Below are positions 17,177 through 38,171 of a stretch of DNA of 64,000 nucleotides, in pieces. Origin of the DNA: Nitrospirota bacterium (GTDB lineage: Bacteria > Nitrospirota > Thermodesulfovibrionia > Thermodesulfovibrionales > UBA9159); contig CAVOUE010000003.1 of the NCBI GenBank assembly GCA_963699545.1, positions 736,001 through 800,000 of the forward strand. The letters are read 5' to 3'. How positions within the stretch are numbered: the first letter of the stretch is position 1; each line of letters starts with the position of its first letter. The position numbers and the translations under genes were made by a program. The notes beneath the pieces are model-generated. The model saw only the letters and a list, made by a program, of their open reading frames with translations. It did no database searches and was not told the DNA's origin.

Positions 17177-17866
17177 ATGCAAATGAAAGCTGCAATGAGA
17201 GTGTTCATGGTCGTACTTGCCGTGTTCTCCCTGAGCGTTATGTTCGGATGTTCCGGCATGGAATTCGCGCCCAAAGACCCTTATCCGTACTGGTACTATC
17301 CCAAGGAGCTGCCGGAGGCGGGCAGGGCTATAGCTGAGGCGCGTCAGGCCGGCAAGGACAAACAGTGTCCTGCAGAATTCGAGGCTGCAAGGGATTTGAA
17401 GAAGAAGGCCTATGAGGTGTACGCTACATGCAGGACGCAGGAGGCGATCGCCCTGGCCAAGGAGGCGACTGCGAAAGCAAAGGCCCTTTGCGGGCAGAAG
17501 GTCGTGGACAGGATGACCTTGCATGTCAACTTCGACTTTGACAAGTCTGATATCAGACAGGCAGATGTAATGCAGTTGCAGAAGGCCGTCGCCTTCGTCA
17601 AGAAGTACCCCGGTTCCCATGTGAAACTGGAAGGGCATACCGACGGTAAAGGGACCGAACAATACAACCAGAGACTTTCTGAAAGAAGGGCGGAAGCGGT
17701 AAAGCAGTACCTCATTAAAGAGGGTGCTGTTAACAAGACCAAGATTACCGCAACAGGCTATGGCAAGACAAAACCCGTTGCGCCGAACACGACAAAAGAC
17801 GGTAAGGATGATCCTGAAGGACGGGCAAAGAACAGGAGAGTCGAGATCCTTATCATGGCTAAGTAA
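17177..17866 (+). CDS. OmpA-family lipoprotein
   Basis: Lipobox MFGC; VNFDFDKS, LEGHTD..G..YNQRLSERRA and NRRVEI. Confidence 0.9.
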   Translation: MQMKAAMRVFMVVLAVFSLSVMFGCSGMEFAPKDPYPYWYYPKELPEAGRAIAEARQAGKDKQCPAEFEAARDLKKKAYEVYATCRTQEAIALAKEATAKAKALCGQKVVDRMTLHVNFDFDKSDIRQADVMQLQKAVAFVKKYPGSHVKLEGHTDGKGTEQYNQRLSERRAEAVKQYLIKEGAVNKTKITATGYGKTKPVAPNTTKDGKDDPEGRAKNRRVEILIMAK

Positions 17867-17890
17867 GTCGTGTAAAACAAAGTGAAATTC

Positions 17891-17925
17891 GCCGGGGGAG
17901 GGTGGATTGATCCTTCCCCCCCGGC
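17891..17925 (+). terminator. GC-rich stem-loop after the OmpA gene
   Basis: GCCGGGGGAGGG...CCTTCCCCCCCGGC. Confidence 0.5.
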
Positions 17926-18054
17926 GGGCTCATCGAACAGGCCACGGGCTCGTCAGCCATGGCAAGCATTTCACCTCATGTCCCTGGGGGGAGTACGCTT
18001 TTGTGCGGACCGCGATGTATATCCCCCTGCTCGACCGAACCTCCAACATTTATC

Positions 18055-18112
18055 TTGACAAACATATTCACCGAGGTTATGATTTAGTCATCTAATGGTC
18101 AGACCATCAGAT
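18055..18112 (+). promoter_or_regulatory. Sigma70 promoter followed by a FadR-family (LldR/PdhR-type) operator
   Basis: TTGACA (18055-60), 17 bp, TATGAT (18078-83). Near-palindrome ATCTAATGGTCAGACCATCAGAT (18090-18112) with core TGGTCAGACCA. Confidence 0.75.
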
Positions 18113-18200
18113 TGATTGGCCAACAGGGAAGATGTACCGTTTTGTGGATAGGATGTTCGCAGCCGTGAGATCAGAAAGCATTCATCAGGAGGTTCTGTTC

Positions 18201-18359
18201 ATGGAAAAATGGAGATGCATGACGTGCGGCTACATCTATGACCCAGAGGAGGGTGACCCTGATTCCGGCATAGAGTCTGGAACTCGATTTGAGGAGTTGC
18301 CTGACGACTGGGTCTGTCCGAGATGCGGGGTGAGCAAGGAAATGTTCGTAAAGCTATAA
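18201..18359 (+). CDS. Rubredoxin
   Basis: 52 aa, [10 protein letters not shown]...[20 protein letters not shown]. Confidence 0.95.
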
Positions 18360-18373
18360 CAGACGGATGGGTC

Positions 18374-20512
18374 ATGCAGGAGCCGGTAATGGCGGTTGAT
18401 CTGGAACTTACCGTAAGCGAAGCATTTATCGAAGATGTCGGACAAGGATGGGCGCGTCTTGATGCAGATGATATGAAGACGCTGAGCGCGACGCTGGGTG
18501 ATCTCGTCGAGATCTCGGGCAACCGAAAGACCGTCGCGCGTCTTACCGCGACCTCCGACCAGGACAGGGGGAAGAAGGTCATTCTGATCGACGGTCTTAT
18601 CAGGGAGAATGCGCAGATCAACGTCGGAGAGAAAGTGAAGGTTTGCAAGATCCTCCGTAAGACCGCAACAGGTGTTGTCCTGTATCCTTTGGATATCGAT
18701 GGTCCCCTCCCCGGTGACGCCGAACTGGAGTACTTTGGAAAGGTACGACAGGGGCTCCCCATTATCTCTGGTGACAAAATCAATGTTCCGCTGTTTGGGG
18801 GAAAAGACCGTTTCTTCAGGGTGGAAGGAACATCGCCTTCCGGAGGGGTGATCATTAGCCAGCGTACCAAGTTCCTCTTGCAGAGGCCGGACTATTCCCC
18901 GGAGAGGGGTGCGAAGGTCTCGTATGAGGATATAGGGGGGCTTGAGAGAGAGCTGAAACTCGTGCGTGAGATGGTGGAACTCCCCCTGTACCACGCGGAG
19001 GTGTTTGAGCTTCTGGGGATCGAGGCTCCCAGGGGGGTGCTCCTCTACGGTCCTCCCGGCACGGGCAAAACGCTTATCGCGAAGGCCATTGCCGGCGAAA
19101 CAAAGCTCCATTTCATAAAGGTCGACGGCCCTGAGATCATTCATAAGTTCTACGGGGAGAGCGAGGCGAGGCTGCGGGAAATCTTTGAGGAGGCATCGCA
19201 GAATGCGCCGAGCGTTATCTTTATCGACGAGATAGACGCCATCGCTCCGAAACGTGCAGATGTTCTTGGGGAAGTGGAAAAGAGAGTCGTGGCGCAGCTG
19301 CTGGCACTCATGGATGGTATGGTCTCCAGGGGGCATGTGATCGTGGTCGGTGCGACCAATATTCCTGAGATGATAGATCCAGCCCTCCGTCGCCCGGGGC
19401 GATTTGACAGGGAGATCGCCATTCCCGTTCCGAATGAGGGGGGACGGCTCGCTATCCTGAAGGTTCACAGCCGGCGCATGCCGCTCTCACCTGACGTGAG
19501 CCTCGAACGCCTTGCCCAGATCACCTATGGTTTTGTTGGAGCTGATCTGGAGGCATTGTGCAAGGAAGCAGGGATGGTGACGCTGCGGCGATACCTCTCC
19601 CTCTGCAGCAACGGTGATTTTGATTTCAGGAGCACCCCGGAACATCTTCGTATTACCATGGAGGACTTTCTGAAGGGCCTCCGCGAAATAGATCCCACCG
19701 CGACCCGTGAGTTCTTCACCGAGAGGTCCACGGTGAAGTGGAAGGACGTGGGCGGCCTCAGGGAGATCAAGGAGACCCTCGTTTCCGTAGTGGAATGGCC
19801 GTACAGATATCCGCGCCTCTTCGCGGCGGGCAAGGTCTCGCCTCCCAGAGGTATCTTCTTTGCCGGCCCGTCAGGAACCGGCAAGACACTTATGGCAAAG
19901 GCCCTGGCAGGTGAGACGGGGCTGAATTTCATCTCCCTGAGCGGACCGATGCTTTTCTCGAAATGGCTGGGGGAATCGGAAAAGGCTCTTCATGAGGTTT
20001 TCAAGAAAGCAAAACAGTCCGCGCCCTGCATACTCTTTTTTGATGACATAGATGCCCTGGTGACCAGACGGGGTATCTCCGGCGAGAGCGGGGCGGCAGA
20101 ACGCGTGTCGAGCCAGTTCTTCAACGAGCTGGACCGGTTGAGCGATCTTTCGCAGGTTATCGTCCTGGGAGCCACGAACCGCGAGGATCTCGTTGACCCT
20201 GCCCTGCTCCGTGCGGGACGCCTTGATTTTATCCTCAGATTCCCGGTTCCAGGTGAGGAAGAGAGATTAGAAATATTCAGAGTGCATACGGAAGAAAAAC
20301 CCTTGAGTGCTGATGTGGATCTGAAAAGACTGGCCGGCGAGATGGAAGGGATGGTTGGTTCTGATATAGCATCTGTCTGCAAACGGGCTGCCATGTCGGC
20401 TATTGCGGAGATGATCGGTACGCCTCATGAGGGAACCCCGGAGAAACTCTCAGTGTCCGCAGCTCATTTCATGGCTGCCGTACGTGAGGTCAGGGGCCAG
20501 AATGAGAGGTAA
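18374..20512 (+). CDS. CDC48/VCP-family AAA+ ATPase (N domain + D1 + D2); alternative start at 18389
   Basis: N-domain [48 protein letters not shown]; second ring [28 protein letters not shown]. Confidence 0.92.
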
Positions 20513-20513
20513 T

Positions 20514-21223
20514 ATGCTGAAGGCGGTCGAAAAAAAGCGGGCATATGAGGACATCGTCAGGCAGATCTTCGACCTCATCGAGAAGGGAAGGCTGAAGAAA
20601 GGCGACCAGCTTCCGACCGAAAGAGAACTGACGGATACCTTCAAGGTCTCCCGCGCCACCGTGCGGGAGGCGATCCGCACCCTGGAATCCATGAGACTTG
20701 TGGAGAGCAGGCAGGGCAACGGCACCTATGTCCTCGCCTCAAGCGAAGAGACCCTCGTGCAGCCTTTGGCAGCAGCCCTTTTCTCTGAGAGGGACGACCT
20801 CATCGACATCTTTTCGCTCCGCAGGGTCATCGAGCCGTATATCGCTCAGCTTGCGGCATCGTATGCGACGCGTGACGAGATCAAAGAGCTCGAAGAGATA
20901 GTGCAGGAGCAGGAAAGATTCTTGAAAGTGGTTCAAATATGATGAGGACCGATTCCGCCTTCCACAGCAGTCTCGCCGGAATGACGAAGAACCGGATACT
21001 GGAACGTCTTCTGCTTGCCATTGTTGACCTGTTGGCCCAGACCCGTGAAGAGTACCTGCAGAATGAGGAGCGGGCGCACAGCTCTCTTCGCGGGCATCAG
21101 AAAGTCCTGTCGGCTATTAAAGATGGTGATTGCGCCGCTGCCAGGGAGGCGATGCTCCATCACCTGGACAGCGTAGAGGGGCTCATATTCAAGAAGAAAA
21201 AGGGAGGTGGGAGATGCGAATAG
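20514..21223 (+). CDS. FadR/GntR-family transcriptional regulator (copy 1); frameshift near 20915-20940
   Basis: wHTH LPTERELTDTFKVSRATVREA...G.GTYV plus FCD domain D.AFH...N; collinear with copy 2 once one base is restored. Confidence 0.88.
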
Positions 21224-21263
21224 TGTCGGGTCGGGCATAGGGATTATTTTACATTGTTTAAAC

Positions 21264-21280
21264 GACCGGTCTTACCGGTC
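21264..21280. promoter_or_regulatory. Palindrome upstream of the oxidoreductase genes, candidate second FadR-type operator
   Basis: GACCGGT-CTT-ACCGGTC; the core GGTCTTACC resembles the PdhR/LldR-type box. Confidence 0.5.
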
Positions 21281-21300
21281 AACACTGAGGAGGTATGCTA

Positions 21301-21939
21301 ATGGCCAAAATTCACGAAATAACGGTATGGACGCGAGGGGTGCTCATGGACAAGGAAGGCCGTGATATTGCAAGCGCTTTCGGTGATGCGGTTGCAATGG
21401 AAGGCAAACACGTCCAGGTATTCGACAACTATGAAGACCTGCCGGACCGCGTGCTGGTCACTACCCGGAAATATGTCAGGGTCAGCGACGAAGAGATCGA
21501 GCACAAGTATGTATACACCAATGACCATCCTGAAGTGGTTGTTGTTGCCGAACCTACCATAGTCAAAGGGATCAATGTGCTGAGGGGCATGCAGGAAGGC
21601 GGTCTTTTGCTCATCAATACCAACCGCCCGATCGATTACATGCTCAAGTTCATTCCCAACGCTGATCTGCTCGGCGCCATTGCCACGGTGGACGCGGACG
21701 GAATATCCGGAGTGCGGACAGTTGACTTCTCGGGGTCTGAGGGCGGCGTTGACTCTGTTGGAGTCGGCGCCGGCATCGCGGCCCCCATCGTCGGCGCAAT
21801 GGCAAGGGTCACTGGCATGGCAAAGAAGGAGAATCTTGCCAAGATCGTCAAGGATGTGGCAGGAATGGAAAGGGGATACAACGAGGTGAAACTGCAGAAG
21901 TTCCGCAAGGCCCGCGCCGAGTACTCATGGGGCGGGTAG
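21301..21939 (+). CDS. Oxalate oxidoreductase-like 2-oxoacid:ferredoxin oxidoreductase, gamma (domain III) subunit; alternative start at 21295
   Basis: EITVWTRGVLMDKEGRDI, NYEDLPDR, SGSEGG and GAGIAAPIVGA closely resemble the N-terminal part of the Moorella OOR gamma/delta subunit. Confidence 0.85.
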   Translation: MAKIHEITVWTRGVLMDKEGRDIASAFGDAVAMEGKHVQVFDNYEDLPDRVLVTTRKYVRVSDEEIEHKYVYTNDHPEVVVVAEPTIVKGINVLRGMQEGGLLLINTNRPIDYMLKFIPNADLLGAIATVDADGISGVRTVDFSGSEGGVDSVGVGAGIAAPIVGAMARVTGMAKKENLAKIVKDVAGMERGYNEVKLQKFRKARAEYSWGG

Positions 21940-21983
21940 GAAACAGCAGAGAGCGTAAACAAAAAGGATACAAGGAGGATACT

Positions 21984-22337
21984 ATGTCCAAGAAGCTTCC
22001 AGAATTCGGGACGATCAATGTCCCACACGACAGGTCAGTACCCTTCGGGGCGGTCACACCGGCCCCGGTACACCAGCAGGATCTTTTCATGACCTCGAAC
22101 TGGCGGATCGTCCGGCCTGTTATCGATGATGAAAAGTGCACACGCTGTCTCACCTGCTACATCGCGTGTCCCGATTCGTGCTGGTCATACAATGTAAAAG
22201 AAGACGTCATGGAATGGAACGAAAGCTTCTGCAAGGGCTGCCAGATCTGCATCAAACAGTGCCCTTCCGATGCACTGAGCGCAGTTGCTGAACTTGATTT
22301 TGAGGACGGTGTGGTCCGTCTCGAAAAACCCTTTTAG
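21984..22337 (+). CDS. Oxalate oxidoreductase-like delta subunit (2x[4Fe-4S] ferredoxin domain)
   Basis: Own RBS (AGGAGG); TSNWRIVRPVID; CTRCLTCYIACP and CKGCQICIKQCP; ELDFED. Confidence 0.88.
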   Translation: MSKKLPEFGTINVPHDRSVPFGAVTPAPVHQQDLFMTSNWRIVRPVIDDEKCTRCLTCYIACPDSCWSYNVKEDVMEWNESFCKGCQICIKQCPSDALSAVAELDFEDGVVRLEKPF

Positions 22338-22355
22338 GGAGGAGGAGAAAATACT

Positions 22356-23543
22356 ATGGCTCACGAAAAGATGTTAACCGGCTGCTCTGCAGCAGCCCAG
22401 GCTCTGAAGCTTGCGGAAGTGGAAGTGATCTGCTCCTATCCGATCCGCCCTTATACGGCGATCATGATGGAGCTTGCCAAGATGGTCGCCAATGGCGAGC
22501 TGGACGCGGAATTCGTGCACGGTGAAGGTGAGCATGCACAGCTGTCCGTGGTGTTGGGCGCCTCTGCCTGTGGTGCGCGGGCCGTAACAGGAAGTGCAGG
22601 GGTGGGAGTCACCTATGCCTTTGAATTATACAGTCCTGTGGCAGGGGGCCGTTATCCCCTCCAGATGACCATCGCCGACCGTACGCTCGATCCTCCCGGT
22701 GATTTCGGTTCCGAGCATACCGATGCGATGTCCACCCGGGACCAGGGTTGGATCCTCGGCTGGGCCTCCAGTCCCCAGGAGGTATTTGATAACACACTCA
22801 TGGGCTACCGCATCGGGGAGGATCCCCGTATCATGCTCCCCCAGATGACCTGTCAGGACGGGTATTTCATATCCCATATCCCGGACAAGGTGAAACTCGC
22901 GGACCTGAAACAGGTTAAGGAGTTCCTGCCCCCTTACAGCGCTCCCCATCCTCTCAGCACGACATGCCCCGTGTCCCATGGTCCACAGATCAGACCGGAC
23001 CAGGGAGCACCTATGGATGCCCAGAGAGCGGCGACCTTCCTTGAACTGCCAAAGGTCATAAAAGAGGCAACGGAGGATTTCAACCGTATCTTCGGACGGA
23101 ACTATGCCCCGTTCCTCGAAAAGTACAAGCTCGAAGACGCTGAGATAGCGTTCTTCATTCAGGGCGCCCATGCCAACACCTGCAGGAGGGCGGTAGATGC
23201 ACTCCGCAAAAAGGGCGTGAAGGCAGGTATGGCACGTCCCCGCTGGGTCCGTCCATGGCCTACCCGGGAGATCGCAGAGGCCCTGGGGCATGTCAAGGCT
23301 GTCGGAAGTATCGAGACCAGCACATCCTACGGAGGGGCAATGAGAGGTGGCAACCTGATCCATGAGCTCCGCGCCTCCCTGTATGACCTGGACGAGAGAC
23401 CCCTTACGACATCTTTCATGGCCGGTCTCGGTGGTGAAACTATATGGCCCGAGGATTTCGAGTTCATGGCAAAGGTCCTCTCGCAGATGATCAAGGAGAA
23501 GAGGACCAGGAAGTACGTGTACTGGATAGGCTTCGAAGAATAA
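22356..23543 (+). CDS. oorA: Oxalate oxidoreductase alpha subunit
   Basis: 395 aa; YPIRP (R31), GEGEHAQ, DR109TLDPPGD116FG and GPQ211I are the oxalate-binding signature of Moorella thermoacetica OOR. Confidence 0.88.
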   Translation: MAHEKMLTGCSAAAQALKLAEVEVICSYPIRPYTAIMMELAKMVANGELDAEFVHGEGEHAQLSVVLGASACGARAVTGSAGVGVTYAFELYSPVAGGRYPLQMTIADRTLDPPGDFGSEHTDAMSTRDQGWILGWASSPQEVFDNTLMGYRIGEDPRIMLPQMTCQDGYFISHIPDKVKLADLKQVKEFLPPYSAPHPLSTTCPVSHGPQIRPDQGAPMDAQRAATFLELPKVIKEATEDFNRIFGRNYAPFLEKYKLEDAEIAFFIQGAHANTCRRAVDALRKKGVKAGMARPRWVRPWPTREIAEALGHVKAVGSIETSTSYGGAMRGGNLIHELRASLYDLDERPLTTSFMAGLGGETIWPEDFEFMAKVLSQMIKEKRTRKYVYWIGFEE

Positions 23544-23572
23544 AACTCAATTGATGACACGGAGGATAATGA

Positions 23573-24565
<993 letters not shown>

Positions 24566-24610
24566 TTGTAGTATCATGGGAAGAAGGCTGTTCGGCAATG
24601 GAGGGGGTGA

Positions 24611-24683
24611 TGTCATTGCAGGGAACGATACGATCGAAATGCAAAGAGAGATCGCCTCGCTCCCCCGCAGTGGCTCTGTGACA
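24611..24683. repeat. Degenerate REP-like palindromic element
   Basis: TGTCATTGC...GAGATCGCCTCGC...TGTGACA with TGTCA/TGACA ends, between oorB and tctC. Confidence 0.4.
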
Positions 24684-24772
24684 GAAAACGGCGCAGCGCC
24701 CTGATGTTCCCGTGCACTGCGCAATGCGGATCGTCTCTTGAGGAAAGAGATGAGAGAAAGGGAGGCAAGGTC

Positions 24773-25765
24773 ATGGAAAGAACATTCTCAGGATTGAAAA
24801 TCGCTCTGGGTCTGGTTTGCTGTCTTGCGCTGTTTATCGTTTCAATCGGAACAGCAACCGCCTGGGAACCTACAAAGCCTGTAGAGTTTATTGTCCCTGC
24901 AGGAACCGGCGGTGGCGCTGATGTTATGGCAAGATTTGTCAGCCCGATTATAGAGAAGTATAAGTTATCACCAAAACCCTTCATCGTTATAAACAAGTCA
25001 GGTGGAGCAGGAGCAGAAGGAATGCTCTATGTAAAAGGAAAGAACAAGGATCCGCACGTGATCATCATAACGCTGGACAACCTGTTCACGACACCGGCAG
25101 CGACCGGGGTCCCGTTCAACTGGAAGGATCTGACATCAATTTCGCGACTTGCTCTGGACTATTTTGTTCTCTGGGTAAATGCGGAATCCCCGTACAAGAC
25201 TGCCAAGGAGTATCTGGACGCGGTGAAGAAGCAGCCGGGCAAGTTTAATATGGCGGGAACGGGAACAGCGCAAGAGGACCAGATAATCACGGTCATGCTG
25301 GACCAGACCTTTGGGACGAAGTTTTCTTACGTACCCTTCAAGGGCGGAGGTGAAGTGGCAGTCGAGCTGGTGGGTAAGCACGTCGACTCAACGGTGAACA
25401 ACCCTGCTGAGGCGGTAAGCCACTGGAAGGCGAAGAGGCTGCGGCCGCTGGCGGCGATAGACCATCAGCGTATCGACCTGCCTGACTGGAAGACCATCCC
25501 GACCATGAAGGAGGCGACCGGCGTGGACATGAGCTATCTCATGCTCCGGGGAATATTTGCTGCACCCGGAATCACGAAGGAACAGCAGGATTTCTATGTG
25601 AACGTAATGAAGAAGGTGACCGAGACGCCAGAATGGAAAAAATACATATCGGACATGGGGCTGAAGGGAGCATTCCTTTCAGGACCTGAGTATGTGAAGT
25701 GGCTTGAGGAGAAGGAGAAGATGACGAAGGACCTGATGTCAAAAGGGGGTCTGCTCAAGAAGTAA
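24773..25765 (+). CDS. tctC: Tripartite tricarboxylate transporter substrate-binding protein (TctC/Bug)
   Basis: Signal peptide; PTKPVEFIVPAGTGGGAD..AR, NKSGGAG and YVPFKGGG. Confidence 0.92.
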   Translation: MERTFSGLKIALGLVCCLALFIVSIGTATAWEPTKPVEFIVPAGTGGGADVMARFVSPIIEKYKLSPKPFIVINKSGGAGAEGMLYVKGKNKDPHVIIITLDNLFTTPAATGVPFNWKDLTSISRLALDYFVLWVNAESPYKTAKEYLDAVKKQPGKFNMAGTGTAQEDQIITVMLDQTFGTKFSYVPFKGGGEVAVELVGKHVDSTVNNPAEAVSHWKAKRLRPLAAIDHQRIDLPDWKTIPTMKEATGVDMSYLMLRGIFAAPGITKEQQDFYVNVMKKVTETPEWKKYISDMGLKGAFLSGPEYVKWLEEKEKMTKDLMSKGGLLKK

Positions 25766-25777
25766 TACAAACAGCAT

Positions 25778-25827
25778 CCTGAAGCGAGGGAGCGGGATCA
25801 TCGTCTCGCTCCCCGCCAGGTTTTCTT
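25778..25827 (+). terminator. Stem-loop with U-tract between tctC and tctB (partial terminator or mRNA stabiliser)
   Basis: GGGAGCGGGA-N6-TCTCGCTCCC followed by ...GTTTTCTT. Confidence 0.55.
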
Positions 25828-25854
25828 AGTCAGGCATGTCAAAGGGGAGGTTAC

Positions 25855-26331
25855 ATGCGAAAGGCTGAAATATTTGTTGCCCTGCTGTTGTTGTCTATAG
25901 GGATCATTACTCTCGTTGATTCTGTGAGGCTTGGTTTCGGATGGGGAACGAGCGGTCCGGAATCCGGGTTTTTCCCTTTCTATCTGGGATTGGGCCAGGT
26001 CATATGCTCTGTCCTCGTCTTGCGTAACGTTATCGAGAAGTACAAGAAAGAGGGAGCGAGGAAACGTCTCATGCCGGAAGGGGCGTTAAAGCCGATCCTC
26101 TGGATCTTAGTCCCGGCAACAGTGATGATCGTGATCACAGAATTCGTGGGGCTCCACATCGCAGCTGCCATTTATCTGGCGTTTTACATGCGCGCTTCGG
26201 AAAAGGTGGGGTGGATCACAGTGATACTTGTCAGTGTTCTGGTGCCCGCAGGGCTCTATATAGCTTTTGACAAGCTGTTCCTGGTCCCTCTCCCCCAGGG
26301 GTTGTGGGGTGCTAAACTGATACCATTCTAA
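25855..26331 (+). CDS. tctB: Tripartite tricarboxylate transporter small membrane subunit TctB
   Basis: 4-5 TM helices; GPESGFFPFY; FDKLFLVPLPQG. Confidence 0.88.
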   Translation: MRKAEIFVALLLLSIGIITLVDSVRLGFGWGTSGPESGFFPFYLGLGQVICSVLVLRNVIEKYKKEGARKRLMPEGALKPILWILVPATVMIVITEFVGLHIAAAIYLAFYMRASEKVGWITVILVSVLVPAGLYIAFDKLFLVPLPQGLWGAKLIPF

Positions 26332-26361
26332 AAAAGGCTATCCGAAAAGGGAGGAACGTAC

Positions 26362-27864
26362 ATGGGAGCAGATATTAATAATCTGATAATGGGCCTCGGC
26401 GTTGCACTACAGACCTACAACATCATGATTGCCATTATCGGACTTCTTCTCGGAATCATCGTCGGAGTGCTGCCCGGCCTTGGCGGGGCAAACGGCGTGG
26501 CCATACTTATACCCGTCGTTGTTTCGATGCCCGCTACCACGGGGGTCATTCTTTTATCGAGCATATACTGGGGTGCTCTGTATGGCGGAAGCATCACCTC
26601 AATCCTTTTTAACATACCCGGTGAGCCGTGGTCAGTGGCGACCACATTCGATGGTTACCCCATGGCGAAGAAAGGAAAGGCCGGGATGGCGCTTGTCCTC
26701 GCTTTCCTTTCCCATGGGGTAGGGGGGCTTTTCGGCGTCATCATGCTCACCTTCTTTGCACCCATCATCGCAGAGTTTGCCCTGAAGTTCGGCCCTGCTG
26801 AGATCTTTGCGGTCATGGTCCTCACCTTCAGCGCATTTGTCGGACTGGGCGGCAAATCCCCCCTGAAGACCGTGGCGTCCATCCTGTTCGGTTTCATCCT
26901 GGCGGCAATAGGTATGGACATTGTGAGCGGGCAACTCCGCATGACCTTTGGCTCTGTGGACCTCATGGGAGGGTTCAGCTTTATTGTGGCAGTCATCGGC
27001 CTCTTTGGTCTGGGAGAAATATTTCTCACCGTTGAGGAAGGACTGAAAATGGAAGGGGTCAAGGCCAGGGTCGGCTTGAAGGATATCTGGGAAGGGATGA
27101 AGGAGTTGGTCCGCTACCCGAAGGCTCTCATTATGGGTACTCTCATTGGATGCTGGATGGGACTCAAGCCCGGGGGCGCAACCCCTGCCTCTTTCATGGC
27201 GTATGGCTTTGCAAAGCAGTCGGCGAAAAATAAGGATGAATTCGGGAAGGGGGCTTCCAATGGCATCATCGCCCCTGAGGCAGCGGCCCATGGCGCCGGA
27301 ACCTCTGCCACACTCCCCATGATCACCCTGGGAATCCCCGGTTCCCCCACCATGGCGGTCATTATGGGCGGGCTCATGATCTTCGGTCTTCAGCCCGGGC
27401 CGATGCTCTTTAAGGAGCATGCCGATTTTGTCTGGGGGCTTATTGCGAGCTGCTGGGTAGGAAATTTCATCGGGCTCTTCCTCGTCATGGCCTTTGCACC
27501 GATTTTTGCTGCTATTCTCAAGATCAGGTTCGCCATCATCTTGCCGATCATCGTGTACGTCTGCGCCATCGGCGCCTATGCGGTGAACAACAGGATGATC
27601 GACGTCTATTACATGATGATCTTCGGTGTGCTGGGGTATCTGTTCAAAAAACTGGATTATCCGCTTGCGCCTATGGTGCTCGCGCTGGTGCTGGGTGATA
27701 TGGCCGAACAGGCGATGAGGCAGGCCCTCATCATGGGACAGGGCAATCCCCTTGTCTTCTTCAGGCCTCCCCTTGCACTGCCCATTATGATCGTGGCGCT
27801 GATCATCTTCTTCTGGCCCGTGATCTCCTCGGTGAAACAGAAGTTGATGACGAAGAATGCGTAG
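26362..27864 (+). CDS. tctA: Tripartite tricarboxylate transporter permease TctA
   Basis: GVLPGLG, NIPGEP..ATTFDGYPMA and LGIPGS..MAV..G....GLQPGP. Confidence 0.93.
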   Translation: MGADINNLIMGLGVALQTYNIMIAIIGLLLGIIVGVLPGLGGANGVAILIPVVVSMPATTGVILLSSIYWGALYGGSITSILFNIPGEPWSVATTFDGYPMAKKGKAGMALVLAFLSHGVGGLFGVIMLTFFAPIIAEFALKFGPAEIFAVMVLTFSAFVGLGGKSPLKTVASILFGFILAAIGMDIVSGQLRMTFGSVDLMGGFSFIVAVIGLFGLGEIFLTVEEGLKMEGVKARVGLKDIWEGMKELVRYPKALIMGTLIGCWMGLKPGGATPASFMAYGFAKQSAKNKDEFGKGASNGIIAPEAAAHGAGTSATLPMITLGIPGSPTMAVIMGGLMIFGLQPGPMLFKEHADFVWGLIASCWVGNFIGLFLVMAFAPIFAAILKIRFAIILPIIVYVCAIGAYAVNNRMIDVYYMMIFGVLGYLFKKLDYPLAPMVLALVLGDMAEQAMRQALIMGQGNPLVFFRPPLALPIMIVALIIFFWPVISSVKQKLMTKNA

Positions 27865-27876
27865 GATAGGTTCACC

Positions 27877-28051
27877 GTGAAGTTCTTGATCACCGGCGGT
27901 GCAAGACCTGTTGGTCGAACCCTGACCTCTCACTGTCGGAAAAAGGACATCAGGTGAGGGTGGTGGACAAGAATGCCGGTACACTTCAGGGCTTACTCAC
28001 AAGAACGTAGAGATGGTCATGGGGAAGGTGAAAGACCACCCATTGGCATAA
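27877..28051 (+). pseudogene. Degenerate 5' remnant of an NAD-dependent epimerase/dehydratase (SDR) gene
   Basis: GTG start MKFLITGGARPVGRTLT, then after a frame slip LSEKGHQVRVVDKN: the start of a Rossmann fold, truncated just before the ATPase gene. Confidence 0.6.
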
Positions 28052-28067
28052 ATAGGCAGGAGGTTTT

Positions 28068-30785
28068 ATGGTAAACGGAATCTGGCATTCAATGGAGGCA
28101 GCACAGGTCTTAAAGGAGCTTGATACTGATATCCATCAAGGTTTAACAGAGGATGAAGCTGCAAGGCGTATCGAAAGATACGGCTATAATGAACTGAGAA
28201 AAGAAGACAAGGTTTCGCCGTTCACCATTTTCATAAACCAGTTCAAGAATTACCTTATCATTATCCTTCTCATCGCAACTGTCCTTTCTGCAGCAGTTGG
28301 TGAGGTGGTTGATGCTATCCTGATACTGGTAATAGTTATATTCTGTGCAGTATTAGGCTTTGTCCAGGAGTATCGGGCAGGACGTGCCCTTGAGGCACTG
28401 AAGAAGATGCTTTCCCCTACCATAACGGTACTCAGGGGAGGGAAAGAGGAGGAGATTCCATCAAAGGATCTTGTCCCTGGTGATATTCTGCTCCTCGAGG
28501 CAGGAGATAAGATACCTGCTGATGCCAGATTAGTAGAAAATCATTCCTTAAGGTGCGATGAGGCTCCCCTCACTGGAGAATCCCTTCCTGTTGGTAAAGA
28601 TATAAAGTCAGTGGTAGCAGATGCACCTGTAGGTGACAGGAAGAACATGGTCTTTACCGGAACTACTGCCACTTATGGCAGGGGTAAGGCAACCGTCACG
28701 TCAACAGGTATGCACACGGAGTTTGGAAAGATCGCCGAAGAGGTGATGGCGGCAAAGACAGAGAGGACGCCCCTCGAGAAGAGGACGGAAGAGATAGGGA
28801 AATGGCTTGGTATAATCGCCATCGGCATCTGCTTCCTCGTTGCGGGGATCAGCATAGTAAGGGAGCTTATGGGCGGTGGGAGGGTCGATCTGACATTCAT
28901 AATAACTATGGTAATGTTTGCGGTATCGCTTGCTGTCGCTGCAGTCCCTGAGGCACTTGCTGCCATTGTTACAGGCGCCCTCGCAATCGGTATGCACCAG
29001 ATGGCAAAAAGGAATGCCCTTGTGAGGAAGATGCCCGCAGTGGAGACCCTGGGCTGCACCACGGTGATATGCTCGGACAAGACAGGGACGCTCACAAAGG
29101 GGGAGATGACGGTAAGGAAGATGTTCACCATGGGTAAAACGATTGAAGTTACCGGTGCAGGATATGCACCTGCAGGAGAGTTTAGAGGATCAGGACCAAT
29201 CGATATATCAAAAAGTAACTCCTTTCAGATGCTGCTTAAAGGCGGGATATTATGTAATGACTCAGACCTTCATGAGAAAGAGGGGAAATGGCTCATTAAG
29301 GGAGACCCCACAGAGGGTGCCCTTGTTGTAGCAGCTGCAAAGGCAGGCATGCATATACATGAGCTGAGGCTCGAAAACCCCAGGGTAGAGGAGATACCCT
29401 TCAGCTCTGAGAGGAAGAGGATGACCACCATCCACCAGATGGAGGATGGCAAAAGGATGGCCTTCCTGAAGGGTGCTCCTGAAATAGTCTTTGAGAGATG
29501 TTCTCATATATTGGAAGATGGCGGGATGAGAAAGCTTAATGATTCTGATAAGGCTCAGATTCTTAAGATGAATGAAGGGATGGCCAAGGATGCATTGAGA
29601 GTTTTGGGAATAGCCTATAGAGACGTCCCTGATGGAATCGCCTATTCAGAAGATGCTGTTGAAAATGATATGGTATTCGTCGGCCTTGCAGGTATGATGG
29701 ATCCGCCAAGAGAAGAAGCGATTGAAGCAACAAAGGTATGCAAACAGGTAGGCATTAGACCGATTATGATTACAGGAGATCATAAACTCACAGCAGTAGC
29801 CATTGCAAAGGAGATCGGTATTTACAGAGAAGGAGATATGGTGCTCGTAGGTGAGGAATTGGAAAAGATGTCTGATGAGGAATTCAGGAAGGTTGTGGAT
29901 AGGGTAACTGTCTATGCCAGGGTATCCCCTATGGATAAATTGAAGATAGTCAAGGCATGGAAGGCTAAGGGCGAGGTAGTAGCGATGACCGGAGATGGTG
30001 TGAATGATGCACCTGCACTCAAACATGCTGACATCGGGATAGCCATGGGTATATCAGGCACAGAGGTGACAAAAGAGGCCGCAGATATGGTCTTAAGTGA
30101 CGATAACTTTGCAACGATAGTAAAGGCCATCGAGCTTGGAAGGTGGATATATGACAACATAAAGAAATACCTTTCTTACCTGGTCAGGTGTAACATCATA
30201 GAGGTATCGGTCATAGGAGGGGTCGTTTTGATTATGGGACCTGAATATCTTCCGCTTTCGGCAGCAGCCATACTGTATATAAACCTTGTGACCGACGGAC
30301 TTCCTGCCCTTGCCTTAGGGGTTGCACCACCTGAACCTGATATCATGGAAAGACCGCCGAGACATCCGAACGAAAGTGTCTTTTCATGGGATGTGAATTT
30401 CTTTATAGTCCTTGCCTTCTTGCTGGCAACACCTTTCTTCTACTTCCTCTTCTTCCATGACCTTGGTGAGATACAGGAGGCGAGGACAGAGATATTCTTT
30501 GCCTTTATAATACTGGAGTTTATCTTTGCCTTTAACTTCCGCTCGCTGAGATATACGGTTTTAGAGGCACCTCCGCATAAATGGCTTGTGCTTTCGATCA
30601 TTTCGCAGATTGTTCTGACGGTAATACTAATCCAGATCCCTGCTATCCGTGATGCCTTCGGGATAACAATACCTTCGACATCAGACCTTACGCTAATCAC
30701 GGGCTTCGGGTTTGCCGTATTTATCCTGATGGAGATTATGAAGGTAGTTCTGAGGAAGAAGATGCAGGTGGGAAAGCTGAGCTGA
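28068..30785 (+). CDS. P-type IIA (SERCA-like) cation-transporting ATPase, probably Ca2+
   Basis: LTGES, AAVPEAL, DKTGTLT, KGAPE, TGD and GDGVND; TM5 CNIIE, TM6 INLVTDG and TM8 Glu. Confidence 0.92.
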   Translation: MVNGIWHSMEAAQVLKELDTDIHQGLTEDEAARRIERYGYNELRKEDKVSPFTIFINQFKNYLIIILLIATVLSAAVGEVVDAILILVIVIFCAVLGFVQEYRAGRALEALKKMLSPTITVLRGGKEEEIPSKDLVPGDILLLEAGDKIPADARLVENHSLRCDEAPLTGESLPVGKDIKSVVADAPVGDRKNMVFTGTTATYGRGKATVTSTGMHTEFGKIAEEVMAAKTERTPLEKRTEEIGKWLGIIAIGICFLVAGISIVRELMGGGRVDLTFIITMVMFAVSLAVAAVPEALAAIVTGALAIGMHQMAKRNALVRKMPAVETLGCTTVICSDKTGTLTKGEMTVRKMFTMGKTIEVTGAGYAPAGEFRGSGPIDISKSNSFQMLLKGGILCNDSDLHEKEGKWLIKGDPTEGALVVAAAKAGMHIHELRLENPRVEEIPFSSERKRMTTIHQMEDGKRMAFLKGAPEIVFERCSHILEDGGMRKLNDSDKAQILKMNEGMAKDALRVLGIAYRDVPDGIAYSEDAVENDMVFVGLAGMMDPPREEAIEATKVCKQVGIRPIMITGDHKLTAVAIAKEIGIYREGDMVLVGEELEKMSDEEFRKVVDRVTVYARVSPMDKLKIVKAWKAKGEVVAMTGDGVNDAPALKHADIGIAMGISGTEVTKEAADMVLSDDNFATIVKAIELGRWIYDNIKKYLSYLVRCNIIEVSVIGGVVLIMGPEYLPLSAAAILYINLVTDGLPALALGVAPPEPDIMERPPRHPNESVFSWDVNFFIVLAFLLATPFFYFLFFHDLGEIQEARTEIFFAFIILEFIFAFNFRSLRYTVLEAPPHKWLVLSIISQIVLTVILIQIPAIRDAFGITIPSTSDLTLITGFGFAVFILMEIMKVVLRKKMQVGKLS

Positions 30786-30841
30786 CTATACACTTATTAA
30801 ACATAATTACAAAGAACAATTAATGGAGATAAGGAGGTTGT

Positions 30842-31321
30842 ATGTACAAGAATATTCTGTTACCGACGGACGGCTCTCTCCTCTCAAAGAAAGCGATAGA
30901 AAGCGGCATCTCGTTTGCGAAAGCCATCGGTGCCAAAGTGGTAGGACTCTACGTCAGTCCGAAGCTCTCCTTTCATGATATCCTGGAGATCCATGAGGAT
31001 GAGGAGCTCTGGGGACTGAAAGAAGCGGAGAAGGCGAAGAAGGCGCTGAGTCATTCTGAAGAACTGGAAAGGTCCATGGCCGGGAGGTATCTTTCCTTTA
31101 TCAAGACGAAGGCGAAGAAGGCCGGTCTGGCATGTGAGACGCTCCATCTGTCAGGGGAATCTCCGGCAGACGGGATCGTGAAAGTGGCAGCGGAGAAACG
31201 CTGCGACCTTATCGTTATGGCATCCCACGGCAGGACGGGGATATCAGGGGCGCTGCTGGGAAGCGTTACCCGGAAGGTCCTCGGCACCTCGAAGGTCCCT
31301 GTGCTCGTCTGCCGCTCTTGA
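30842..31321 (+). CDS. Universal stress protein (UspA family)
   Basis: YKNILLPTDGS; DLIVMASHGRTG....LGSVT.KVL...PVLV. Confidence 0.92.
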   Translation: MYKNILLPTDGSLLSKKAIESGISFAKAIGAKVVGLYVSPKLSFHDILEIHEDEELWGLKEAEKAKKALSHSEELERSMAGRYLSFIKTKAKKAGLACETLHLSGESPADGIVKVAAEKRCDLIVMASHGRTGISGALLGSVTRKVLGTSKVPVLVCRS

Positions 31322-31507
31322 AACGGACAGTGAGCGGATCTCCTATGATATGCCGTGCTGCGGGGTTAAACGGCAAATATCGTAATAAAAATAATTCATT
31401 GCATTGGGAGTCTGGCGGTCTTGCCGCAGGGTTCTTTGTTCTGGTATACTATTTGCCATTTTGTACGTACACCGATATGGTGACGCCCGAAGAACTGGAG
31501 GATTCAC

Positions 31508-32572
31508 ATGCCAAAAACATATAAGATAGCGGTCATTGGCGGTGACGGGACAGGGCCGGAGGTTGTTGCGGAAGGGATGAAGGTACTCAATGCCGCTTCC
31601 GGCACATTCGGCTTCAATCTGGATTACACCCATTTTGATTTCGGCGGTGAGCGGTACCTGAAGACCGGTGAACTCCTTCCCGAAAGCATCTTTGACGATC
31701 TGAGAAGGTTTGATGCCATCTATCTCGGCGCCATCGGTCACCCGGAGGTAAAGCCGGGTGTTCTCGAAAAAGGGATACTCCTCAGGATGAGGTTTGAACT
31801 GGACCAGTATATCAATCTCCGTCCCGTGAAGCTCTTTCCGGGTGTTGACTGCCCCCTGAAGGATAAGAAACCGGAAGATATCGACTTCGTCGTCGTGAGA
31901 GAGAATACCGAAGGACTCTATACCGGCGCCGGGGGATTCCTGAGGAAAGGCACCCCTGATGAGATAGCGACCCAGGTCTCGGTGAATACAAGGAAGGGCG
32001 CCGAAAGGTGTATACGGTTCGCCTTCGATCTTACCAGGAAGAGAAACAAGACAAACAAACTCACCCTCTGCGGAAAGACCAACGTCCTCACCTTTGCCTT
32101 TGATCTGTGGGAAAGGACCTTCTATGAGGTAGGGAAGGAATATCCCGGGATAAAGACCGATTATGCCCACGTGGACGCCATCACCATGTGGTTTGTGAAG
32201 AATCCCGAGTGGTTCGATGTGATCGTCACGGACAATCTCTTCGGCGATATCATTACTGACCTGGGCGCCATGATCCAGGGAGGGCTCGGTATCGCAGCGG
32301 GAGGGAACATCAACCCTCAAGGTGTCTCGATGTTTGAGCCCATGGGCGGGTCAGCGCCAAAATACAAGGGACAGAACGTCATTAATCCCCTTGCAGCCAT
32401 TCTCGCTGCCGGGATGATGCTCGATCATCTTGGAGAAAGCAGGGCGGCCGGTGCGGTAGAGAAAGCGGTGATGGAGCTTACGGCGACAAAGATCAAAGGT
32501 CTCGCTGCCGGCAAAATGGGCTATTCGACGACCGAGATCGGAGATATGATCGCCGATATGGTCGGGAGATAG
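31508..32572 (+). CDS. leuB: 3-isopropylmalate dehydrogenase
   Basis: [38 protein letters not shown] and FEPMGGSAP. Confidence 0.85.
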
Positions 32573-32634
32573 AAGACGCGAGAAAGAGAGCACCTTGACG
32601 GAAAGTCCTTAATTTTTTTATCAGGAGGTTTTTG

Positions 32635-37210: not shown

Positions 37211-37927
37211 TCATTTCTCGCTCTCCCTCCGTCTTCTCTGCTTTTTCCGGAACAATATTCCTTCCACACTTTCCAGGTGACGGCGCATGGCCTGTTTCGC
37301 GGCATTCCCGTCGCCGCGTTTGATGGCGGAAAGAACTTCCTCATGTCCGCGAAGGGAGCCGTGAGCGCGCTCGTCATTCTGGAGGTAGCCTTCACGGGTC
37401 TTGGCAAGAAGGTCGACAATGGCGAGAAGTAAACGTTCCATGACCCGGTTCTTTGCCATCCCGGCAAGGCTGTTATGAAATGCCGAATCGGTCTCGACGA
37501 TATTAACGCCGCCGGCAAGGTCTTTTTCCTGTTTCTGCAGGATATCTTCGAGCTCTTTGATCTCTTCGCGCGTGGCATGTTCCGCGGCAAGCTGCGCTAT
37601 GACGGGTTCGATGATCTTGCGGATGAAGAAGATATCGGCGAGATCGTCCTTCTCGTGAAGGAGGGTTGCGGCCAGCGGCTGCACGAGGGCTTCTTCACTT
37701 GAGGCAAGAACGTACGTGCCGTCCCCCTGTCTGCTCTCCACGAGCCTCATGGATTCCAGGGTGCGGATCGCCTCCCGCACGGTGGCGCGGGAGACCTTGA
37801 AGGTATCCGTCAGTTCTCTTTCGGTCGGAAGCTGGTCGCCTTTCTTCAGCCTTCCCTTCTCGATGAGGTCGAAGATCTGCTTGACAATGTCCTCATATGC
37901 CCGTCTTTTTTCGACTGCCTTCAGCAT
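37211..37927 (-). CDS. FadR/GntR-family transcriptional regulator (copy 2)
   Basis: Intact wHTH + FCD; close paralog of 20514..21223. Confidence 0.92.
   Translation of the reverse strand: MLKAVEKRRAYEDIVKQIFDLIEKGRLKKGDQLPTERELTDTFKVSRATVREAIRTLESMRLVESRQGDGTYVLASSEEALVQPLAATLLHEKDDLADIFFIRKIIEPVIAQLAAEHATREEIKELEDILQKQEKDLAGGVNIVETDSAFHNSLAGMAKNRVMERLLLAIVDLLAKTREGYLQNDERAHGSLRGHEEVLSAIKRGDGNAAKQAMRRHLESVEGILFRKKQRRRRESEK
37746..37880. repeat. 135-bp perfect inverted repeat of 20561..20695 (wHTH-coding part of the two FadR genes)
   Basis: Base-by-base comparison, GCAGATCTTCGACC...GGAATCCATGAG, is identical. Confidence 0.9.
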
Positions 37928-38088: not shown

Positions 38089-38171
38089 TGGTGCGAGAGA
38101 GGGGAGTCGAACCCCTATGGTTGCCCACTGGATCCTAAGTCCAGCGCGTCTGCCAGTTCCGCCACTCTCGC
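38089..38171 (-). tRNA. tRNA-Leu (anticodon TAG), CCA encoded
   Basis: GCGAGAG acceptor stem, D-loop GGCAGAC, anticodon arm CTGGA-CTTAGGA-TCCAG, long variable arm, GGTTCGACTCC, 3' ACCA. Confidence 0.96.

Follow-up and report, generated by a model that had tools for sequence, protein, structure and literature searches.

A probable anaerobic oxalate-oxidation operon in a member of the Thermodesulfovibrionales, with a CDC48-like ATPase and a candidate TctCBA oxalate importer

We propose that a gene cluster from a sulfate reducer of the Thermodesulfovibrionales probably forms an operon by which oxalate is oxidised anaerobically, under repression by a GntR/FCD regulator, with TctCBA as the importer and a CDC48-like ATPase as an accessory factor. 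The cluster lies in the 64-kb window, by which we mean the whole stretch of Nitrospirota bacterium DNA that was analysed (64,000 nt), and runs co-directionally on the + strand from a promoter to a universal stress protein (USP) gene (18055-31321). The gene order is promoter, palindromic operator, rubredoxin, CDC48-like ATPase, GntR/FCD regulator, four oxalate oxidoreductase (OOR) subunits, TctCBA, P2A-type ATPase and USP. Every element named in the first-pass annotation was found on this strand, at the coordinates listed in Table 1; the program-made open reading frames begin too far 5′ for rubredoxin, CDC48, delta and TctC. What is new here is the partnership of CDC48 with OOR, the exchange of one transporter for another and the four-subunit form of OOR.

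Table 1. Features of the oxalate locus, with coordinates in the window and supporting matches
Feature	Coordinates	Strand	Evidence
Sigma-70-type promoter, TTGACA-17-TATGAT	18055-18083	+	scores 11/12; top site within 17500-33000
Putative FadR/GntR-type operator, perfect palindrome ATGGTCAGACCAT, core TGGTCAGACCA at 18096-18106	18095-18107		only exact copy in the 64-kb window
Rubredoxin, 52 aa	18201-18359	+	PF00301; NF045768 94.7 bits vs cut-off 90
CDC48/VAT-like double-ring AAA+ ATPase, 712 aa	18374-20512	+	CDC48_N, CDC48_2, two AAA and two AAA_lid_3 domains
GntR-family regulator, FadR (FCD) subfamily	20514-21223	+	GntR HTH and FCD; two frames, 20514-20942 and 20939-21223
OOR gamma subunit (domain III)	21295-21939	+	5c4i_B residues 12-208, E 2.9e-58; NF045790 235 bits vs cut-off 230
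OOR delta subunit (two [4Fe-4S] ferredoxin domain V, 111 aa)	22002-22337	+	5c4i_B residues 225-315, E 5.6e-26
OOR alpha subunit	22356-23543	+	5c4i_A E 2e-143; NF045791 558.5 bits vs cut-off 500
OOR beta subunit (TPP and proximal cluster)	23573-24565	+	5c4i_C E 6.1e-150; NF045792 564.7 bits vs cut-off 590
TctC periplasmic binding protein, candidate oxalate receptor	24773-25765	+	PF03401 107.7 bits; open frame from 24704
TctB small membrane subunit	25855-26331	+	PF07331 63.8 bits
TctA large membrane subunit	26362-27864	+	PF01970 472.6 bits
P2A-type cation ATPase, probably Ca2+; lineage-specific neighbour	28068-30785	+	Listeria LMCA1 6zhf, E 7e-197
Universal stress protein, lineage-specific neighbour	30842-31321	+	PF00582 117.5 bits

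Of the related OOR loci, which number at least 539, the 80 closest were compared with this one; the sequence records label these 80 as Nitrospirota, Thermodesulfobacteriota, Acidobacteriota, Methylomirabilota, Betaproteobacteria and Myxococcota. Within these 80 closest loci the alpha gene is accompanied by gamma (73/73), delta (75/75) and beta (68/70), gamma and delta are two separate genes in 74/74 loci, and CDC48 (54/59) and GntR (59/69) stand upstream of the OOR genes. The co-occurrence predicted by the first-pass annotation is thus found for CDC48 and the FadR-type regulator, both of them conserved parts of the OOR module, and fails for the P2A-type ATPase, the USP and rubredoxin, as set out below. 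Rubredoxin occurs only in three of the 80 closest loci (L002, L003 and L057, the three closest Nitrospirota loci) and would be a recent first-gene addition within this clade. In Moorella the OOR locus, as we understand it, likewise has a GntR regulator along with an AAA ATPase and an MFS carrier.

We found that the alpha and beta subunits match the OOR structure 5C4I, and that alpha retains oxalate-specific residues such as had been claimed for the four OFOR subunits. The alignments to the Moorella enzyme give identities of 63% (alpha) and 72% (beta). Aligned to 5c4i_A, alpha, which was also recovered by a profile search of its own genome (NF045791, 558.1 bits), keeps Arg31 in YPIRP, Arg109, Asp112, Asp116 and Phe117, and the substrate-contact and plug-loop residues are all invariant across 12/12 aligned homologues. 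PMC5020499 describes Arg31 in YPIRP (which replaces Thr), Arg109 and Asp116 as distinctive of OOR. Beta falls short of its NF045792 cut-off, yet scores far above the next family (PorB, 322.7 bits). Delta, whose start was set from the homologue alignment within an open frame beginning at 21927, reaches 104 bits with NF045790 and covers model positions 197-316 only. We conclude that, judged by its sequence, the curated family models and its active-site residues, the enzyme is an oxalate oxidoreductase. By homology and active-site residues, the four subunits would convert oxalate to two CO2 without CoA, and two low-potential electrons would pass via three [4Fe-4S] clusters to an acceptor, either ferredoxin or, possibly, the rubredoxin encoded alongside.

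Both the promoter and the FadR-type operator that had been proposed upstream of these genes were seen. Promoter-like sites overall occur at chance level (14 found, 12.4 expected). An exact TGGT-N3-ACCA within 400 nt 5′ of CDC48 was found in 19/53 related loci, against 0.0075 expected per locus, and with one mismatch permitted in 27/53, against 0.10 expected; conservation of the operator, whose core keeps its position in those 19 relatives, exceeds chance. We take the operator consensus of the FadR subfamily to be T.GT-N3-AC.A, which TGGTCAGACCA near the promoter fits. The regulator gene is broken as assembled, by a one-base gap: its halves share one frame in 64/65 related loci, and the contig of a relative has one extra base after 20918. 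This gap is probably an assembly error. The regulator would sit on the palindrome just 3′ of the promoter and let go once its ligand is present, placing the operon under GntR/FCD repression with oxalate as the probable inducer.

CDC48 is a near-constant but non-obligatory companion of OOR. The copy in the window, which is the only full-length CDC48 of its genome, misses the TIGR01243 cut-off by 0.25 bit (802.4 vs 802.65) and has aromatic pore loops in both rings. A CDC48 homologue at E <= 1e-80 was not found in three of the five OOR genomes that lack an adjacent copy. One of those three (L014) is labelled in its record as a chromosome-level assembly. Across the OOR-linked CDC48 set the Walker motifs of D1 and D2 are intact, with pore loops FY or YY in D1 and WL or WV in D2; the D2 Walker B has DD instead of DE in the window and in 2/48 scored relatives. 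No conserved C-terminal tail of the proteasome-docking type, as we assume that motif to be, was seen in the OOR-linked set.

Most likely, this double-ring unfoldase would assemble, repair or clear the Fe-S/TPP enzyme. CDC48 could instead serve the regulator, for instance inducing the operon through unfolding of the repressor, or be a general proteostasis factor that travels with the island, which we consider unlikely. The CDC48 stop (20510-20512) nearly abuts the GntR start at 20514, but GntR is absent or moved in four loci where CDC48 still adjoins OOR (L064, L067, L071 and L080) and is kept in three where CDC48 is absent (L014, L072 and L076), so that the two vary independently. A role apart from OOR would fit the absence of CDC48 from three OOR genomes and the CDC48 paralogues of the same phylum that serve another client, gas-vesicle clusters, which indicate that the family has been re-used; however, OOR-linked copies are 62-83% identical across phyla, compared with 50-52% for the non-OOR paralogues of the same phylum. 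If the enzyme is its client, this near-constant association of CDC48 with a catabolic enzyme would supply a concrete client for bacterial CDC48 homologues.

The first-pass annotation had read the whole run, including the P2A-type ATPase and USP, as one unit for growth on calcium oxalate, with the pump expelling the Ca2+ that is freed or enters as the mineral is consumed. We consider this improbable. A P-type ATPase was found in 2/49 loci with room for one, the nearest relative (L001), which retains the same order, and an unrelated member of the Thermoanaerobaculia (L041), in which a P2A-type ATPase (44% identical) lies 1.1 kb past TctA; a single locus independent of the window lineage is about what chance would give in a genome with several such pumps. 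The ATPase is missing from the close relatives L003 and L057, and the USP occurs in 6/80 of the closest loci, at varying positions. Together with the three rubredoxin loci, these counts leave the calcium-detoxification reading weak.

The ATPase itself carries DKTGT at residue 337, TGES and GDGVND, with Glu in M4, N..E in M5, N..TD in M6 and Glu in M8, at ion-site positions that we took from SERCA. Its closest relative of solved structure is the characterised Ca2+ pump LMCA1, which speaks for calcium, but it scores below both curated Ca2+-pump cut-offs (TIGR01522, 678.3 vs 798.3 bits; TIGR01116, 643.4 vs 703.4 bits). Ca2+ pumps typically carry Gly at the third position of the M4 motif; the motif here is PEAL. 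A Ca2+/H+ exchanger gene follows at a distance of 8 kb (38942-40033; TIGR00378, 313.7 bits vs cut-off 211) but was found in 0/80 of the closest loci. G+C falls from 0.53-0.56 in the operon to 0.48-0.49 over the ATPase and USP, a one-mismatch near-operator 5′ of the ATPase is not conserved in L001, and another ATPase with USP genes no more than 3 kb away is present on contig C5 of the same genome. A binding protein that takes up free oxalate would, moreover, import no Ca2+. No terminator-like site was found in the 203 nt that separate TctA from the ATPase, so that read-through is possible and the ATPase and USP may be transcribed from the operon in this genome. The calcium pump looks like a chance neighbour outside the conserved module. 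Of the complete module for uptake, oxidation and Ca2+ detoxification that had been envisaged, the enzyme, the TctCBA importer candidate, CDC48 and the FadR-type regulator are supported, and the detoxification part is not.

Among the 80 closest of the at least 539 loci, 64 had at least 1,400 nt after the beta gene, and in this slot we found an MFS carrier in 40, TctC in 18, both in none and neither in 6. The MFS scan took in 40 of 41 proteins (L022 was left out), and each of the 40 hits the oxalate/formate antiporter model TIGR04259 at E <= 1e-60, which we take to be the OxlT type of Oxalobacter formigenes. The close relatives L002 and L003 are among the loci with an OxlT-type MFS in the slot. 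In the present locus PF03401, PF07331 and PF01970 all score above their cut-offs, in the order C-B-A. A profile search of the same genome found no OxlT-type MFS (best 56 bits vs cut-off 335), which makes TctCBA the likely oxalate importer; the genome has two TctC genes only, the second 23% identical. The TTT importer is thus a good candidate for the oxalate uptake system, as had been suggested. TctC would take up free periplasmic oxalate and TctBA would move it inward, standing in for the OxlT-type carrier that most related loci hold at the same position.

OOR-linked TctCs are 69-90% identical across phyla. A 71% identical TctC also lies behind a divergent OFOR (G034; alpha 35% and beta 48% identical), so the TctC clade may not be strictly oxalate-specific. 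We know of no TTT system for oxalate, and the portions of the literature covered by our search yielded neither a C2 dicarboxylate as a TTT substrate nor a functional link between oxalate and TTT systems. The swap from OxlT to a binding-protein system suggests that the host is adapted to free oxalate at very low levels, which would be expected beside calcium oxalate; a weaker form of the earlier ecological idea thereby survives without a calcium pump. It is very improbable that another small 2-oxoacid or dicarboxylate (for instance glyoxylate, oxamate or mesoxalate) is the substrate of enzyme and transporter, or that the enzyme is mainly reductive, with the oxalate label carried over from Moorella: beta below its cut-off, a gamma/delta split unlike the Moorella architecture, the TctC of G034 and the lack of a known oxalate member among TTT systems would be in keeping with this, but the identity of alpha and beta to a characterised enzyme, the invariant substrate-contact and plug-loop residues and the OxlT-family transporter next to OOR in 40/64 loci argue against it.

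The genome that carries the operon encodes dsrA (530 bits vs cut-off 393 in a profile search) and AcsB/CdhC; oxalyl-CoA decarboxylase was not found in it (best 209 bits vs cut-off 739). Electrons from oxalate would go into sulfate reduction, and the CO2 could enter the acetyl-CoA pathway. Oxalate makes up a major pool of plant, fungal and mineral-bound carbon; little is known of what becomes of it under anaerobic conditions outside the gut, and to our knowledge OOR has been studied in one acetogen only. The expectation of an OOR in a lineage distant from Moorella was borne out. That OOR is essentially a Moorella enzyme holds for its biochemistry and not for genomes: close homologues are encoded by at least 539 species genomes, and many of these are labelled in the records as wetland, sediment and groundwater sulfate reducers and syntrophs, and NCBI annotation already labels non-Moorella relatives as oxalate oxidoreductase. 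This spread suggests that one-step oxalate oxidation may be a common anaerobic trait. More tentatively, and less likely than not, CDC48 might be a dedicated "OOR activase", comparable to Rubisco activase, that spends ATP to reshape or pull out enzyme caught with dead-end TPP adducts or damaged clusters, and combined with the first TTT system for a C2 dicarboxylate it might form a mobile oxalate module across many phyla of wetland and sediment anaerobes.

Several characterised systems can be set beside the locus. The neighbouring ATPase matches LMCA1 of Listeria monocytogenes (6zhf) over its full length, sharing DKTGT, TGES, GDGVND and the M6 NLVTD, and differs in the PEAL of M4 and in scoring below the PMR1- and SERCA-type NCBIfam cut-offs. 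With archaeal VAT and eukaryotic Cdc48-p97 the CDC48-like protein shares the N domain (CDC48_N, CDC48_2), two AAA rings, Walker A in both rings, Walker B in D1 and unfoldase-like aromatic pore loops; here, however, the protein is bacterial and its gene lies inside a catabolic operon. TctC is distant from the solved TTT receptors (4x9t, BugE 2dvz, BugD 2f5x and the terephthalate receptor TphC 7ndr), the best match being 4x9t (E 1.8e-30). Where most relatives have the OxlT-type antiporter after beta, this locus has TctCBA, a binding-protein-dependent secondary transporter that would be expected to have higher affinity and no formate exchange. The OOR of Moorella thermoacetica (PDB 5C4I, 5EXD, 5EXE) is alike in having TPP together with three [4Fe-4S] clusters, aligns end to end in alpha and beta, and is identical at Arg31 of YPIRP, Arg109, Asp116 and the plug loop. 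In contrast, chain B of the Moorella enzyme is a single 315-residue fusion, whereas here domains III and V are on separate genes of a four-subunit enzyme, delta has an extra conserved C-terminal tail, and the host is a sulfate reducer rather than an acetogen.

All elements that the first-pass annotation had claimed for the locus were found in one uninterrupted co-directional run on the plus strand (18055-31321), with genes assigned through Pfam, NCBIfam and PDB sequence searches. Gaps between genes measure 1 to about 70 nt, save those between the beta gene and tctC (about 207 nt) and between tctA and the ATPase gene (203 nt), and no terminator-like site was found in either of these two. Because leuB (NF002898, 545.7 bits vs a cut-off of 393) and then pyruvate phosphate dikinase (PPDK) come next, we place the end of the unit at the universal stress protein (USP) gene. 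Promoter-like sites as a class occur at chance level (14 found vs 12.4 expected). An Rfam scan of 17000-41000 found no riboswitch, its sole match being a tRNA gene that lies, with a Ca2+/H+ exchanger gene, 7-9 kb past the operon.

Features of the locus and their recurrence among the best 80 of at least 539 related loci; denominators below 80 count loci with enough flanking DNA
Feature	Position	Strand	Recurrence	Remark
Promoter TTGACA-17-TATGAT	18055-18083	+		11/12; top sigma-70-like site in 17500-33000
Perfect palindrome ATGGTCAGACCAT	18095-18107			12 bases downstream of promoter; sole exact copy in window
Rubredoxin	18201-18359	+	2/58, plus L003 at locus edge	only L002, L003, L057
CDC48-like N-D1-D2 AAA+ ATPase	18374-20512	+	54/59	upstream of OOR genes
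CDC48 D2 Walker B	20021-20044			reads DD; residues about 550-557
GntR-HTH/FCD regulator	20514-21223	+	59/69	break within about 20905-20940
OFOR gamma	21295-21939	+	73/73	
OFOR delta	22002-22337	+	75/75	
Delta tail G-V-x-R-L-x-K-x-F	22311-22337			
OFOR alpha	22356-23543	+		
OFOR beta	23573-24565	+	68/70	
TctC	24773-25765	+	18/64	directly 3' of beta
TctB	25855-26331	+		
TctA	26362-27864	+	14/53	
One-mismatch operator site	27912-27922			
Type-II P-type ATPase	28068-30785	+	2/49	L001 82%, L041 44% identity
USP	30842-31321	+	6/80	anywhere in locus
PPDK	32623-35241	+		four frame segments
GGT-family gene	about 35380-37093	-	8/80	within 10 kb of OOR; two frame segments
Second regulator	37211-37927	-		upstream of GGT-family gene
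tRNA	38092-38171	-		
Ca2+/H+ exchanger	38942-40033	-	0/80	TIGR00378 313.7 vs cut-off 211

The alpha and beta subunits align over their full length with chains 5c4i_A (E 2e-143) and 5c4i_C (E 6.1e-150) of the Moorella thermoacetica oxalate oxidoreductase (OOR), and the next solved relative, a PFOR, is far weaker (1.5e-56 and 1.4e-76, respectively). Passages of PMC5020499 attribute oxalate recognition to a Thr-to-Arg change in the YPIRP motif together with Arg109 and Asp116. Aligned to 5c4i_A, the window's alpha subunit retains Arg31 within YPIRP, Arg109, Asp112, Asp116 and Phe117, and 12 of 12 aligned homologues share all five residues. Alpha exceeds its NCBIfam equivalog cut-off (558.5 vs 500), gamma exceeds that of the NCBIfam "delta" model (235 vs 230) and beta falls slightly below its own (564.7 vs 590). 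The 5c4i matches, the oxalate residues and the alpha equivalog score bear out the OOR assignment made in the first-pass annotation, and the case for the predicted identity of the enzyme is strong. The delta subunit has two CxxCxxCxxxCP motifs and an extra conserved C-terminal tail (alignment A5), which reaches past the C-terminus of the Moorella chain.

One genome per species was scanned by pattern, giving at least 596 stretches, of which at least 539 are confirmed relatives; the best 80 of these, used throughout, represent the nearest relatives and no random sample of the at least 539. Neighbours were counted by tblastn of the window's proteins on the 80 loci, using only those with enough flanking DNA. 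The gene combination that had been supposed to accompany OOR proved to recur in part: CDC48 and the GntR regulator recur, TctC is present in 18 of 64 loci, and the P-type ATPase and rubredoxin are rare. No gene upstream of CDC48 is broadly conserved among these best 80 of at least 539 loci, and we therefore take CDC48 as the start of the conserved module. We regard the putative calcium pump, USP and rubredoxin as local additions. In 19 of 53 loci of the same set, the operator core TGGT-N3-ACCA stands no more than 400 nt upstream of CDC48 (background 0.0075 per locus); allowing one mismatch raises this to 27 of 53 (background 0.10).

Several other genes were seen near OOR in this best 80 of at least 539. 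In 24 loci, the window not among them, an NAD-dependent epimerase/dehydratase-family gene lies 3' of the transporter, MFS or Tct (e.g. L006:13637-14647, L041:15576-16529), and tblastn gave no match to a remnant of it between TctA and the ATPase of the window. ThiC (thiamine pyrimidine synthase) stands 3 kb downstream of OOR in seven loci (e.g. L010:15010-16272), which would fit a TPP enzyme. OOR-beta is followed in two Betaproteobacteria MAGs (L067, L071) by another, distantly related OFOR gene set (28-33% identical), and CDC48 is downstream of both sets, not upstream.

Clustering of open frames in the best 80 of at least 539 loci revealed two alternatives in a single slot 3' of beta. Of the 64 loci whose sequence extends 1400 nt or more past beta, 40 carry an MFS protein of about 430 residues and 18 carry TctC, with both in none and neither in six. 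All 40 MFS proteins scanned, out of 41 (that of L022, ending at a contig edge, was left out), matched TIGR04259, the oxalate/formate MFS antiporter family (E ≤ 1e-60), and those of L002 (405.7) and L003 (351.6) exceed its cut-off of 335. The slot varies even among the closest relatives, with MFS in L002 and L003 and TctCBA in the window, L001 and L057. An OxlT-type gene is absent from the window's genome (best 56 bits vs the TIGR04259 cut-off of 335), which has only two TctC genes, the other copy being 23% identical. Across at least four labelled phyla in the same set of loci, OOR-linked TctCs share 69-90% identity. Mainly because of this positional replacement of an OxlT-type MFS, we infer that TctCBA is a candidate oxalate importer. 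As a caution, no tripartite tricarboxylate transporter (TTT) substrate of the oxalate kind is described in the literature searched. A second caution for this reading comes from genome G034, where a TctC stands beside a divergent OFOR: on one short contig (C112, L086) the OFOR (alpha 35%, beta 48% identical) is followed by TctC (71%) and TctB. Another short contig of G034 (C9, L087) encodes a CDC48 that is 57% identical, and the G034 set may represent a sister family of OFORs linked to CDC48 and a TTT.

The CDC48-like ATPase has an N domain, two Walker A motifs and the aromatic pore loops FY (D1) and WL (D2), a pattern retained across the OOR-linked set. Processive unfoldases, archaeal VAT among them, show this pattern. 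The protein is the sole full-length CDC48 of the window's genome, and eight of 201 genomes in a sample of the window's phylum encode such a protein, with the OOR-linked type only in the window's genome and in G127 (70% identical, OOR adjoining). Four others (50-52% identical) occur in gas-vesicle clusters (L081-L084, in G035, G184, G142 and G039). These clusters comprise Hsp20, an ArsA-like ATPase, CDC48, GvpL/F (with a DnaJ domain in one copy) and a GvpN-like AAA protein. Since an OOR-linked type stands against gas-vesicle-linked paralogues, the CDC48 family appears to consist of client-specific modules. With moderate confidence, we propose that the client here would be OOR itself, CDC48 acting in assembly, repair or removal of inactivated enzyme. 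In five OOR genomes no CDC48 adjoins the locus. Two of them encode a homologue elsewhere (51-53% identical), and the other three, of which one is labelled a chromosome-level assembly, yielded none at E ≤ 1e-80; this speaks against an obligatory role. A modelled complex of the N domain (residues 1-190) with OOR gamma and delta, built on alignments A3-A5, is neutral on binding (score 0.00, mark 0.32). The DD of the D2 Walker B was considered as a family trait and rejected, as two of 48 scored relatives read DD and all others DE.

The first-pass annotation had gone further and read the locus as a complete unit for oxalate uptake, oxidation and Ca2+ detoxification. The ATPase is nearest to the Listeria Ca2+ pump LMCA1 (E 7e-197) and has the DKTGT, TGES and GDGVND motifs and the NLVTD segment; however, it scores below curated Ca2+-pump cut-offs and its M4 segment reads PEAL. 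Ca2+ is the likely ion by these comparisons, but comparative evidence leaves the ATPase untied to OOR. Only one of its two occurrences in 49 loci (best 80 of at least 539) is independent of the window's lineage, the close relatives L003 and L057 lack it, and G+C falls from 0.53-0.56 to 0.48-0.49 over the ATPase and USP genes. Contig C5 of the same genome carries another P2-type ATPase (44% identical), again with USP genes no more than 3 kb away. Between the operon and the Ca2+/H+ exchanger lie leuB, PPDK, the GGT-like gene, the second regulator and the tRNA, and the exchanger is absent from all 80 of these loci. On this evidence we consider a unit of uptake, oxidation and Ca2+ detoxification improbable, and the claim of a complete module is not supported; the conserved OOR module would begin at CDC48 and end without a calcium pump. 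Control of the ATPase by the operon's operator was also considered, on the strength of a one-mismatch site before the gene, and was dropped: the window holds 22 such sites vs 18.7 expected, and the site is not retained in L001.

The two halves of the regulator lie in different frames, and 64 of 65 relatives (best 80 of at least 539 loci) have a single frame. A related strain's metagenome contig has one extra base after 20918 and is open there. PPDK and the GGT-like gene are also split, as are, elsewhere in the genome, AcsB/CdhC and a P-type ATPase (C4:198822-199293; C3:805842-808447). Such breaks in several conserved genes suggest that the cause is probably indels in the assembly and not decay of the genes. 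A search of public sequencing runs listed no RNA run with the locus and no run with at least half of its sequence words, the best share being 0.12 (wetland, soil and sediment metagenomes). The second regulator is an intact paralogue (HTH half 84% identical, FCD half 72%), with no TGGT-N3-ACCA site upstream. The adjacent gamma-glutamyltranspeptidase (GGT)-family gene has counterparts within 10 kb of OOR in L003, L005, L008, L009, L011, L012, L014 and L015, those of the Desulfobaccales loci standing immediately 5' of CDC48. HpxW, an oxamate amidase, was a candidate identity for the product of the window's gene and was dropped: among solved structures its nearest relatives are ordinary gamma-glutamyltranspeptidases (6j3a, E 5e-118), with 5hft, an oxamate amidase structure, ranking low (2.5e-21).

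The closest of the best 80 of at least 539 loci are labelled Nitrospirae/Thermodesulfovibrionales MAGs (L001 96%, L002 95%, L003 93% alpha identity); others are labelled Syntrophales, Syntrophobacterales, Desulfobaccales, Desulfomonilaceae, Thermoanaerobaculia, NC10/Methylomirabilota, Betaproteobacteria, Myxococcales and more. Many of these relatives' proteins are already named oxalate oxidoreductase in public databases. As OOR-alpha exceeds the cut-off in only three of 201 genomes in the phylum sample, the window's own included, and between-phylum identities are 77-88% in the best 80, the module is patchy and was probably spread horizontally. The window's genome (3.04 Mb, 13 contigs, 87% complete) encodes dsrA (530 bits vs 393) with dsrB adjoining, as well as AcsB/CdhC, and no oxalyl-CoA decarboxylase was found in it. 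The literature searched on oxalate in Thermodesulfovibrio, on Moth locus tags and on OOR in metagenomes contained nothing relevant. Neither the proposed CDC48-OOR partnership nor TTT-mediated oxalate transport is described in the literature searched, a body that stops short of the primary OOR papers, and both are worth following.

In the Moorella OOR a single 315-residue chain comprises domains III and V, whereas the window and 74 of 74 related loci (best 80 of at least 539) have two separate genes; a four-subunit OOR is thus the norm for this large clade. We suggest that the locus is most aptly classed as a variant of a known system that combines a four-subunit OOR, a putative TTT importer replacing the OxlT-type carrier, and a predicted CDC48-type unfoldase as conserved partner.
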